Shown here in pieces: positions 8,644 to 27,088 of a DNA stretch of 64,000 nucleotides; the first letter of the stretch is position 1; each line of letters begins with the position of its first letter. The notes under the pieces were generated by a model. The model ran no database searches. It was not told where the DNA came from and worked only from the letters and a program-made list of their open reading frames with translations. A program made the translations under genes and the position numbers. The stretch is taken from contig OZ024741.1 in assembly GCA_964016885.1 (NCBI GenBank), positions 215,636,001 through 215,700,000 on the forward strand. The letters run 5' to 3'. The stretch comes from Eledone cirrhosa. Lineage: Eukaryota.

Positions 8644-9219
8644 TTAGCCCACCCAATGATCTAAAATGTCTTGCACAGAGTCGGCAACCAAAACATTCAC
8701 TGGGAATAGTCGGCTGGGAATAGTCGGCTGTACTTTTGCATGTCGCTTGAGCCCTCCTGCTGATTTACATTCTCTACCACATGTTTGGCAAGCACGATGA
8801 GTAGCATCTCCAACAGCAGCCTGGTAGTCAACCACTGGTCTTACTTTATGACTGCGAAGATGACTTTCGAGTCCAGCTTTGCTTAGGCAGAGTCTCGCAC
8901 ATACGCTGCATGTCAGCACCATAGGAGGACCCTCGCCGTCTGGAAGTGCAACAGCAATGCCCTTCCTCACATCCCGCTTTACTTTCACGTATGCGATTCG
9001 AGATGCCTCAAAGGCAACTTTTCCCTCATATACAGTCTTTCTCCATTTATTACGATCAGCAGCAATATTTTCCCATGTATCAGCAGAGATGTTAGCGTCT
9101 TTCAGAGAGGCTTTCAAGGAATCCTTATACCTCTTTTTTGTTTTATGTGGCGGTCGTTTTCCTTTAACCAACTCTCCATAAAAGAATTGTTTTGGTATTC
9201 TAGAATCCTTCATCCTAGA
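8644..9219 (-). mobile_element. RTE (BovB-like) LINE 3' fragment with C2H2-type zinc fingers
   Basis: SRMKDSRIPKQFFYGELVKGKRPPHKTKKRYKDSLK..WENIAADRNKWR, then CSVCARLCLSKAGLESHLRSH and CQTCGRECKSAGGLKRH. Confidence 0.85.
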
Positions 9220-9667
9220 TACATACATGCATACATACATACATACATAGTATGCTTTAGTCTCTCAAAACCTCCTTTTCAAAAACCACTTTACATTATG
9301 ACAAGTAAGTCAGCCGGAGTCCTGCATTAGAGACATCAGAGTATAACTAAGACAAGAAACGTTGAATGAATCTAATGAATTCGAAGATGAGCTGTTATAT
9401 ATTTATTAGTGTGTAGCTTATTAAATTTCAGCGCAAGCAATACTAGTTATATCATGACGTACATTTCTGTAATTTATTGAACATTTCATTATTACAGCGG
9501 ACATTTAACGGACTTAATTCTATTGATGTCGGAAACACAGTCAATTATTCTGTCACTTTGACATTTTACTTCCATGAATTTCTATTCAGCTTCAATGGAT
9601 AAACTATAGTCGGTTTTATACTGCGAACATTTTTCGGTTAATGATTAGACACATAACATAATGTTGT

Positions 9668-11423: not shown

Positions 11424-11820
11424 CGTGTATAGTAATAATAATAAATTTGAAGACTAAAATCCAAAGAGCGCTCGATAAGTATAAATATATATCAAATATA
11501 TAAGAACCCTAGAGCAAATATTTATTGAAATAACAAATTGAACTGTAATCTGTTATTTTAATAAATATATATATACTGTGTATATATATATATGGAGAAT
11601 ATGATTGGCTGTGTAGTTGCTGATAAAAACCACAGACCCTCAATCTCAACTCTACTTGTGAAAAGCAGAAGGACTTCGAAACCGGTAAAGGAACCAAATA
11701 AATATATATATATTTTTTTAAATAAGACTCCAGTTGCATTTTCGATTTCATCTTTTTTTCTTTATACTTTCACTCGTGTAGGACACCTCGGTTATTTTTC
11801 ATTTTGTAAAAAAACCTCAC

Positions 11821-24705: not shown

Positions 24706-24918
24706 CACTGGCATATACGCCCATCATATATAAATAAATATAAACAAAAAAAAGCATCTCAAACAGAGAGACAGACTAACATGATGGCAGGTAATTCTAT
24801 TTCAAGAATTAATTCCTTCTCTGTCTATTATTACCAACTTATGCTATCTATTCTTATTACAAAACAGTGTTATGTGTCATCATATTATATATATATGTAT
24901 ATATATATATATATATAT

Positions 24919-25030
<112 letters not shown>

Positions 25031-25780
25031 GAATATATATATAGTGTATTTTGCAATACATTGTATGCTTAATTAAAAGCATTTTGAACACCATACGCGA
25101 TTGTTTTAAAATAGTGACGATGTCACTTATTTAAATTTTCAGCAAACAGGGGAAGATAAACTAACAGAGCTCTATTCGTAGTTTTTGGTACTTATCAAAG
25201 CTAACTACTCCCCTGTCTGCTGAAAATTATGTGTTGGATTCTTATAGAATTCCAGTAATAATCAGGAACTGATTAAACAGAACGGTCGCAGGTCCAGCAG
25301 AATTGGTTCTCTGAAATAGCGATATATATATGAATGTATATATAGTGTATTTTCCAATACACTGTATGTTTAATTAAAAGCATTTTGAAGACCATAGCGA
25401 TTGTTTTAAAATAGTGACGATGTAATTTATTTAAATTTTCAGCAAACAGGGGGAGATAAACTAACAGAGCTCTGTTTCGTACTTTTTTGGTACTTATCAA
25501 AGCTAACTACTCCCCTGTTTGCTGAAAATTATGTGTGTTGGATTCTTATAGAATTCCAGTAATAAATCAGGAACTGATTAAACAGAGCGGTCGCCGGTCC
25601 AGCAGAAATTGAAAATTAGAATTGGTGCTCTGAAATAGCGATATATATATGAATGTATATATAGTGTATTTTGATAAACTGACAGAGCTCTGTTCGTACT
25701 TTTTGGTACTTGTCAAAGCTCACTTCTCCCCTTTTCGCTGAAAATTATGTGTGTTGGATTATTATCTCCCCCTGTTTGCT
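25031..25780 (-). mobile_element. Non-coding tandem element (about 300-320-bp unit, about 2.4 copies), one HHR per unit; retrozyme-like
   Basis: Units start at about 25031, 25332 and 25651. HHR motifs lie at about 25159-25203, 25459-25504 and 25677-25720. Confidence 0.75.
25459..25504 (-). ncRNA. Type I HHR, U3-A8 core variant
   Basis: AGCT-TTGATAA-GTAC-CAAAAAA-GTAC-GAAA-CAGAGCTCTG-TT-AGTT. Helix I is extended by a roughly 19-bp stem (TTTTCAGCAAACAGGGGAG / CTCCCCCTGTTTGCTGAAAA). Confidence 0.75.
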
Positions 25781-25784
25781 AAAA

Positions 25785-26101
25785 TGAATAAATGGAAACT
25801 ATATTTATAAAACCATATTTATTCTATTATATATATTTCAAGGGTACCAAAACTTTATTACGCACTCATCAGATAAAATACAAAATTTGTTTTATAAATA
25901 GCGACATACCCAGGAATCAGACCTTAATCAGATCCAACCGGAACTTGAACCGTCAAGGTCTGATTCCTGGGTATGTCACTATTTATAAAACAGACTTTCT
26001 ATTTTATCTGATGAGTGCGTACCAAAGTTTTGGTACCCTTGAAGTATATATATAATGGAATAAATATGGTTTTATAAACATAGTTTCCATTTATTAATAT
26101 C
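25785..26101. mobile_element. Fold-back PLE-tail insert with an HHR in each arm
   Basis: Arms at 25785-25924 and 25956-26095. The minus HHR at 25820-25880 is TATTTTAT-CTGATGA..GAAA-TATATA-TA-ATAGAATA; the plus copy at 26000-26062 has GAAG in place of GAAA. Confidence 0.75.
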
Positions 26102-26103
26102 AT

Positions 26104-26142
<39 letters not shown>

Positions 26143-26151
26143 AATATATTT

Positions 26152-26201
<50 letters not shown>

Positions 26202-26679
26202 ATACTCATATATATATATATATATATATATACATACACACATATATACATTTTAATATATATACGTAAATTTATAAACACACTCAGACACTTTCACGTA
26301 CATATATATATATATATATATATACATATATATATGTATGCATGTATGTATGTATACATGCTTGCGTGTATGTATGTGTGTATGTATGTATGTACGTATG
26401 TATGTATATATATATGAATGTATAAAATATATATTATGTTTTTTGTTATCTCTGTTTGTCACTCTATTTTCTAATCTTTATATTGGTATGTTTTGTGGAG
26501 TAGGGGGGGGGGTCATATTTATTGTTTCTTTTGGTCTGTCTCGTTTCTTTTGGTTTATATTTTCTTTTTATATATTCTTTGTTTTGGATATTTAGACTTT
26601 GTTATTTGTTTACTCTTTTGTTGTTGTTTTTTGATTTTTTTTTTCGTCTTTGAAATGTTTACATTATTTTAATTTCAAA

Positions 26680-27088
26680 GTTACACGCGTCTGGCAGGTG
26701 ATTTGATCTGAGATCTTGTGTTGAAACTAAAGCAATTACATCTTGGTTGTGTCATTTTCATCATATAAGCACATGTCTGCTACGTGACTTAATCTTACTT
26801 CATGTGTGTTGAAATTAAAGCAATTACGTCTTTAAAGAGTCATTTCAGCCACAGTTGTACATGTCTGGCAAGTGGCTTGATCTGAGACTGTCTGTTGTAA
26901 TTAAAGCTATTACATCGTGGGAGGATCATTTTAGCTACATATGTACTTTTCTGGCAAGTGACTTGATCTGTGGTTCTATGTTGAAACTAAAACAATTACA
27001 TTGTGGAAGAGTCATTTTAATCACAGTTGTACATGTCTGGCAAATGACTTGATCTGAAATGGTGTATTGAAACTAAAGCAATTACATT
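26680..27088. repeat. About 80-bp tandem repeat, about 5 degenerate copies
   Basis: Recurrent acatgtctggcaagtgacttgatctg..gttgaaactaaagcaattaca. Confidence 0.8.

Follow-up and report, generated by a model that had tools for sequence, protein, structure and literature searches.

The presence of hammerhead-like motifs in a short tandem array of the Eledone cirrhosa genome raises the question of what kind of element this array represents and how it came to lie beside a (TA)n microsatellite. The array occupies positions 25021-25765 of the window, i.e., the whole stretch of DNA analysed here (64,000 nt of contig OZ024741.1, assembly GCA_964016885.1, positions 215,636,001 to 215,700,000 of the forward strand). 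It is in all likelihood a decayed insertion of a high-copy family of ORF-less units of ~318 nt, which carry a predicted type I hammerhead with a U3-A8 core pair. The family would belong to the metazoan non-LTR retrozymes, and the enzymes of Penelope-like elements (PLEs) are likely to have copied it into (TA)n tracts.

Organization of the locus

Tandem Repeats Finder (TRF) detects the array at 25021-25673 with a period of 301 nt (2.1 copies, 90% matches), and alignment together with BLAST against the unit delimits 2.3 tandem units of ~301-318 nt on the minus strand of 25021-25765. This agrees with the initial annotation, made from the letters of the sequence, which had described a tandem of about 2.4 units of about 300 nt bearing a U3-A8 motif. 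Unit 1 (25021-25322, minus strand) is ~300 nt long, lacks 14 nt and shares 89% identity with unit 2; its stem and motif, at ~25133-25229 of the minus strand, form a defective hammerhead. Unit 2 (25323-25640, minus strand) is of full length, 318 nt by alignment and BLAST, and its hammerhead core is intact. Unit 3 (25641-25765, minus strand) is 5′-truncated at unit position 92 and BLAST joins its unit positions 92-186 to 288-318, with an internal deletion of positions 187-287 (~100 nt) and the loss of the 3′ strand of the distal stem. The GC content of the array is ~33% and the longest stop-to-stop frame in its interior encodes 77 aa. Neither a reverse transcriptase (RT) nor a GIY-YIG frame is present at the locus, and a Pfam scan of the 16 longest frames of the window (1-64000) revealed no convincing protein-coding gene, the scan including a weak C2H2 zinc-finger match at 8647-9264 (minus strand).

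The 3′ end of the array abuts a (TA)n microsatellite (24882-25043; TRF period 2, 81.5 copies), which is the presumed insertion target. At the opposite edge, BLAST identified a short inverted fragment on the plus strand (25762-25793, corresponding to unit positions 182-216; 35 nt, 85.7% identity). Judged from its orientation, which matches the minus-plus layout of all 22 two-armed loci of the family described below, this fragment is the remnant of a second arm placed head-to-head with the first. It is cut short by an unrelated repeat of 309 nt, palindromic and MITE-like (25787-26095), which was inserted at the right edge and lies outside the retrozyme. This near-perfect palindrome represents a separate dispersed family, with 2,952 first-look places in the genome and listed copies spanning query positions 2-310, and it shows sub-threshold Rfam matches to the microRNA hairpins mir-9223 (47 bits) and mir-8536 (41 bits). 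A second (TA)n microsatellite follows at 26106-26339 (TRF). Further along, an 86-bp tandem repeat occupies 26689-27087 (4.6 copies, 73% matches), and simple repeats such as (TA)n and (TG)n are abundant in the window as a whole (1-64000).

Because a single core of the three is intact, that of unit 2, a transcript of the locus could be cut at most once and no unit-length RNA would be released by the locus alone. The locus is probably a decayed, dead insertion and has by itself no special importance.

The predicted hammerhead and its fold

The minus strand of unit 2 reads UUGAUAA-GUAC-CAAAAAA-GUAC-GAAA-CAGAGCUCUG-UU, followed by the A of the predicted cut, which corresponds to the motif UUGA(U/C)AA-GUAC-loop-GUAC-GAAA-CAGAGCUCUG-U(U/C) put forward initially. 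The core nucleotides are numbered U3, U4, G5, A6, U7, A8 and A9, then G12, A13 and A14, and the predicted cut falls between 25463 (U17) and 25462 (A1.1) of the minus strand. As predicted from its sequence, the motif has the core of a type I hammerhead in which positions 3 and 8 are able to pair. The minimal three-way junction extends over 25456-25507 and the hammerhead with its closing stem over 25433-25530 (both minus strand), the latter being delimited by the sequence, the folds and a weak match to the Rfam model HH9. Helix II has 4 bp, of which G10.1-C11.1 is the first, and a loop of 6-7 nt. Helix III consists of A15.1-U16.1 and CAG/CUG capped by AGCU (4 bp and a tetraloop), and its segment is self-complementary, as expected from the palindrome noted at first sight. 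Helix I is composed of 7 proximal pairs, a 2-nt bulge and a long extension, whose distal strands lie at 25510-25530 and 25433-25453 of the minus strand. As regards a possible tertiary contact between loop 1 and loop 2, this 2-nt bulge after 7 bp and a loop 2 of 5-7 nt are present. The initial annotation was right to propose that a long stem extends helix I, but the closing stem comprises 21-22 bp with one bulge and not the ~19 bp that it gave.

The distribution of lesions among the units is also as first described, with unit 2 intact and the GAAA damaged in the other two. Unit 1 carries CUAC (a G to C change in helix II) and GAAU-AG in its GAAA region, while unit 3 carries UUGACAA, has lost one A of GAAA (GAA-CAG) and ends with UC. 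Nucleotide 17, at the cleavage site, is not G; units 1 and 2 have U at this position, and both unit 3 and the family consensus have C.

The folding energy of the 111-nt region of the motif is -41.1 kcal/mol (z = -8.0 relative to 200 shuffled sequences), and constraining unit 2 to the hammerhead fold gives -40.9 kcal/mol, i.e., a gap of 0.2 kcal/mol with the minimum free energy (MFE). In three copies with a C3-G8 pair, the forced hammerhead fold costs 0.5 kcal/mol over the MFE. In two typical U3-A8 copies, the hammerhead fold is surpassed by 5 kcal/mol by a core-masking helix of 8 bp, formed by GAGCUUUG with CAGAGCUC. A link between this competing fold and U3 was considered and rejected, the helix depending on a GC in loop 3 and not on U3.

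The hairpin of helix III alone is weak (-2.5 kcal/mol). The self-complementarity of its segment allows two motifs to pair in a duplex of 12 bp, predicted at -21.5 kcal/mol, and the equivalent two-motif duplexes of two sister subfamilies reach -13.6 and -10.7 kcal/mol. Such a double-hammerhead logic has been described for the motifs of newt and axolotl (PMC7229834) and of PLEs (PMC4209133).

Within the window, none of the Rfam families, hammerhead models included, attains its gathering score, which is a database criterion and not a chemical definition of the hammerhead. The HH9 model gives a sub-threshold match at 25442-25517 (15.9 bits, E 1.2, for a cut-off of 52) and scores 21.6 bits against the same cut-off of 52 on two consensus-like copies. 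Three C3-G8 copies gave no Rfam hammerhead match at E up to 1.

A dispersed family with two core pairs

A first look at the 3.0-Gb genome to which the unit belongs gave 3,414 candidate places, 40 of which were scored, leading to 100 listed matches. Unit 2 is 92-95% identical to the 29 other genomic copies that were fetched as loci, the best among the matches listed. The 40 hammerhead regions that were aligned share UUGAUAA-GUAC-CAAAAA-GUAC-GAAA-CAGAGCUCUG-UC, again followed by A, so that U3-A8 can be considered as the family state and GUC as the usual triplet. A search for the exact motif, in which position 3 could be either Y and position 8 either R, returned 750 matches on many contigs (332 forward and 418 reverse), while the reversed control pattern returned none. 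The initial annotation had made its reading depend on conservation of the core across genomic copies, and the consensus keeps this core both in the 40 aligned copies and in the 750 matches.

Positions 3 and 8 form a Watson-Crick pair in 735 of these 750 copies, with C-G in 76 and, by difference, U-A in 659; the 15 mismatched combinations comprise nine U-G and six C-A. The main subfamily is thus characterized by U3-A8 (659/750). Copies with C3-G8 constitute a sister subfamily, which shares ~85% identity with unit 2 along the entire unit and has the motif CUGA(A/G)GA, a loop CAACA and AGAU as loop 3. A C3-G8 unit can stand in tandem with a U3-A8 unit, as it does in locus L002. A third subfamily is more distant (75-79% identity, 2,720 first-look candidates) and is characterized by CUGAUGA, a differing helix II and a shorter helix III.

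Family units can also accumulate in long arrays. About 18 of them are found at C1:268924500-268932500 (locus L041), organized in a higher-order repeat of 1,155 bp (three units and a chimeric partial unit), and this array also has a short inverted arm. The same region, with two motifs 4.3 kb apart, was considered as a candidate PLE and rejected, because it is a long retrozyme array beside a helicase-like frame. This frame, of 281 aa, is presumably a look-alike of a helicase C-terminus of the Helitron/PIF1 type.

Two observations on possible RNA intermediates can be added. Among 31 U3-A8 units, a search for scars of RNA editing gave no clear signal (45 A>G against 21 T>C, with 14 singletons of each), and a contig set of unspecified kind (0.20 of words), made of thousands of short repeat contigs without a usable start, end or circle junction, has no bearing on expression.

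Covariation in the hammerhead and its extension

Comparison of the subfamilies allowed the predicted pairs to be evaluated against controls in which the partners were slid. For the two close subfamilies (46 sequences), the paired cells amount to 94.9% versus 38-48% with slid partners, and the 3/8 pair is UA in 35 sequences, CG in 11 and unpaired in none. In 42 sequences representing three subfamilies, 91.1% of the cells are paired versus 42-50% with slid partners, and the 3/8 pair is again never unpaired. Moreover, among the 38 predicted pairs, 13 have changes in both partners in these 42 sequences (170 cells versus at most 29 when slid). Ten of these double-changed pairs belong to helix I and its extension and two to helix II, the remaining one being the 3/8 pair. 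Through these compensatory changes, the long stem is maintained. At the base of helix II, the G10.1-C11.1 pair is GC in all 46 sequences of the two closest subfamilies and is replaced by U-U in the third one (19 of 42 cells). Helix III showed no covariation in the 42 sequences of the three subfamilies and, being invariant, it provides evidence neither for nor against itself.

Two limits apply to these counts. The covariation stems from three lineages, so that few independent events underlie it, and transposon copies inherit the sequence of their master, so that copy numbers do not measure selection.

It could be argued that the unit is a common dispersed repeat or satellite whose hammerhead-like string arose by chance or persists as a dead relic, its RNA neither cutting nor circularising. 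The Rfam thresholds that were not reached and the more stable competing fold in two typical copies of the main subfamily point in this direction, as does the fact that simple hammerhead descriptors match by chance in large genomes (PMC3088659). However, three subfamilies with 15-25% divergence in the rest of the sequence retain all the invariant core positions, and the changes observed fall on loops or are compensated, as in the 13 pairs and the 3/8 pair described above. The contrast between 750 matches and none for the reversed control, as well as an architecture and an insertion layout that are those of a published class, further argue against a chance or relic origin, which is very improbable.

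Insertion anatomy

The layout of insertions was analysed in 38 loci comprising 60 arms, a set from which L022 (duplicating L021) and L035 were excluded; because the loci were picked by similarity or by the exact motif, the sample is biased and so are the following counts. Two arms are present in 22 of the 38 loci, and in all 22 they are arranged head-to-head, with their 5′ ends facing. At their outer end, 22 of the 60 arms pass directly from unit position 318 into (TA)n, while 24 carry a tail of 24-38 nt which runs into the next unit and is mostly followed by (TA)n. Among the 22 two-armed loci, 15 have this tail on one arm. With or without it, 46 of the 60 arm ends are located at (TA)n, and the remaining 14 are of other kinds. 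Of the arms comprising one unit or more, about half begin at unit positions 1-4, beside the unit's own TA tract, and only two of the 60 begin at position 179, next to the predicted cut.

Since insertions end away from the predicted cleavage site, the role of the ribozyme in mobility would be indirect at best. In addition, arms longer than one unit and ends that avoid the cut site point to a multimeric or circular template rather than to a cut linear monomer.

Hallmarks published for PLEs include 5′ truncation, partial tandems and an adjacent inverted, 5′-truncated copy, as well as a tail of 30-40 bp at one end and a bias towards (TA)n (PMC8557442). The insertion layout of the family matches these hallmarks, and the window locus fits the same footprint in a reduced form, i.e., a minus-strand arm ending in (TA)n and an inverted fragment.

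A conserved hairpin of 7-8 bp is located just upstream of the terminal UA tract, at unit positions ~283-303 (25338-25358 of the minus strand in unit 2), and shows a compensatory change from G-C to A-U in the distant subfamily (L043). Its motif, GTRTATT...AATAYAC, was found in retrozyme copies only and was absent from the PLE bodies of the 17 loci sampled. The reverse transcriptase may recognize its template by this hairpin.

These traits also bear on the possibility that the family is mobilised by a reverse transcriptase of the LINE or LTR type, or spreads at the DNA level, with the hammerhead serving only for RNA processing. Sequence comparison with 17 loci gave no partner element and the genome contains further RT-bearing frames (L054), which leaves room for another mobiliser. 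However, the family has no poly(A), tRNA-like head or LTRs, and it displays the head-to-head arrangement in 22 of 22 cases, the 24-38-nt tail at one end and the (TA)n targets, traits which are hallmarks of PLEs and are not described for target-primed reverse transcription by LINEs in the accessible part of PMC8557442. Mobilisation of this other kind is hardly credible.

Proposed mechanism and significance

Copying by PLE enzymes would proceed as follows. By analogy with the published class, tandem copies would be transcribed and the transcripts would be cleaved by the hammerhead after GU(C/U), probably most efficiently with two motifs paired through the self-complementary helix III. A host ligase of the RtcB type would then close the resulting unit-length RNA into a circle, while helix I and the 21-bp stem keep its ends together. 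Finally, a PLE reverse transcriptase would copy the circle or a multimer, using nicked (TA)n as a primer on the UA-rich tracts of the RNA.

The initial annotation had suggested that the long stem holds the cut ends together and could favour ligation or circularisation. In published retrozyme assays, circularisation relies mainly on the tRNA ligase RtcB and not on self-ligation (PMC7229834), and hence such a role of the stem is plausible only.

The family provides a well-supported addition to the retrozymes of animals, together with an internal natural experiment in which sister lineages differ by a compensated core pair. Because the lineages with either pair were amplified, it can be argued either that the U3-A8 hammerhead works in vivo or that spread is not limited by the efficiency of cutting. 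The covariation of the long helix I extension and the self-complementarity of helix III lead to the hypotheses that the extension holds the cut ends and that cutting takes place only when two motifs pair. Finally, the insertion layout is genomic support for PLE enzymes copying retrozyme RNAs into (TA)n tracts, which in the portion of the literature covered was so far proposed from co-occurrence and homology and not from insertion anatomy.

Relationship to published hammerhead families

Non-LTR retrozymes of 170-400 nt, bearing type I hammerheads and giving linear and circular RNAs, have been described in coral, mussel and axolotl (PMC7229834). The units of 301-318 nt fall within this range, as the initial annotation had proposed, and its reading of the tandem as a U3-A8 hammerhead array of the metazoan non-LTR retrozyme type is supported by the core, the covariation, the size, the GC content and the absence of an ORF. 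Like those retrozymes, the present family forms tandems of low GC content without an ORF, with one type I hammerhead per unit, is dispersed in thousands of copies in a genome that also contains PLEs, and has a weak helix III favouring cutting by two motifs, as in axolotl (PMC7229834). It differs by the U3-A8 pair of its main subfamily and by a helix I extended into a near-perfect stem of 21-22 bp. Moreover, expression and circles were shown for the coral, mussel and axolotl retrozymes (PMC7229834), whereas for the present family they are predicted. The text of PMC7229834 mentions neither octopus nor cephalopods, and literature searches combining retrozymes or hammerhead ribozyme with octopus, and retrozymes with cephalopod, returned incidental co-mentions only.

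A likeness in size is seen with newt satellite 2 and the axolotl repeats HHR_Amex1/2 (330-350 bp), which, by their description, are also tandems of units of ~320-350 nt with a helix III too weak for efficient cutting by a single motif (PMC7229834). The U-U at the base of helix II in the third subfamily (subfamily C) is likewise found in Amex2 of axolotl. These are, however, vertebrate families with a canonical C3-G8 core (PMC7229834).

The U3-A8 core is not in itself new, natural examples having been reported in 2011 (PMC3088659) and 2014 (PMC4209133). The former were found in bacteria, phages and others, and such variants were stated to be active in vitro; they share the same compensated pair with the present family, in a context other than tandem mobile repeats of animals (PMC3088659). 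The latter are covariants of the minimal PLE hammerheads of Schistosoma mansoni, in which U3-A8 naturally replaces C3-G8 in the context of a retroelement, as it does here (PMC4209133). A further likeness to the minimal PLE hammerheads is a palindromic helix III region suggestive of dimeric action, along with motif pairs that are close and inverted. Nevertheless, according to the same source, those minimal motifs reside in the terminal repeats of coding elements, without a real helix III and with a helix I of 4-5 bp, whereas the present unit is an ORF-less tandem repeat with a 4-bp helix III closed by a tetraloop and a 7-bp helix I followed by its extension.

Plant LTR retrozymes are, similarly, non-autonomous retroelements with hammerheads and circular RNAs. 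They differ by type III hammerheads located in LTRs, circles of 600-1000 nt and target duplications of 4 bp (PMC4918200), none of which is seen here.

Penelope-like elements in the same genome

The GIY-YIG family of the same genome has 10,596 first-look candidates, and all of the 150 that were scored are above the cut-off. One PLE (L055; C1:145868000-145877900, minus strand) contains an open frame of 938 aa with RVT_1 and, at its C-terminus, a GIY-YIG domain. The frame is flanked by two U3-A8 mini-hammerhead motifs in direct orientation, 4,979 nt apart, with (TA)n downstream, and the element lies ~2.5 kb from a 318-nt retrozyme copy. Its motif, UUGAAAA-GCAG-AAGAA-CUGC-GAAA-CCGG-UA, is that of a minimal hammerhead-like structure and differs from the motif of the 318-nt unit in helix II, helix III and helix I. 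A BLAST comparison of the unit with 17 GIY-YIG/RT loci gave no homology, the matches being TA-rich sequence or inserted retrozyme copies.

This comparison is relevant to the view that the unit is a fragment of an autonomous PLE, i.e., its pseudo-LTR or 3′ end, and that the copies are solo terminal pieces. The pseudo-LTRs of PLEs do carry hammerheads, and PLEs form partial tandems and inverted copies (PMC4209133, PMC8557442); consensus sequences of Xenopus retrozymes match PLE termini (preprint 10.64898/2026.07.22.740005); and the PLEs of E. cirrhosa also insert in (TA)n, one of them with a U3-A8 motif. A PLE fragment is nevertheless difficult to reconcile with units that follow one another head-to-tail without coding sequence between them (~18 in L041 and 2.3 at the window locus), with a BLAST search returning only inserted copies and TA-rich matches, and with the differences in all three helices between the L055 hammerhead and that of the unit. 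A PLE fragment is decidedly unlikely, and an independent ORF-less retrozyme copied by PLE enzymes remains the preferred reading.

The U3-A8 pair that occurs in both the retrozyme and the PLE could also be read jointly. In such a scenario, which is quite unlikely, the core would have flipped from C3-G8 to U3-A8, the flipped lineage would have out-amplified the other by ~9:1 (659 versus 76), and the core shared with the PLE would, beyond its function in processing, form part of a handle for template choice by the PLE machinery or a host factor, parasite and partner keeping track of each other's cores.

A trace of a PLE is also found in the window itself. At 11621-11753 (plus strand), between (TA)n tracts, lies a decayed fragment that is 90% identical to the hammerhead-bearing tail of the PLE of locus L056. 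Its core is broken, reading GUGAAAA, and its helix II is mismatched.
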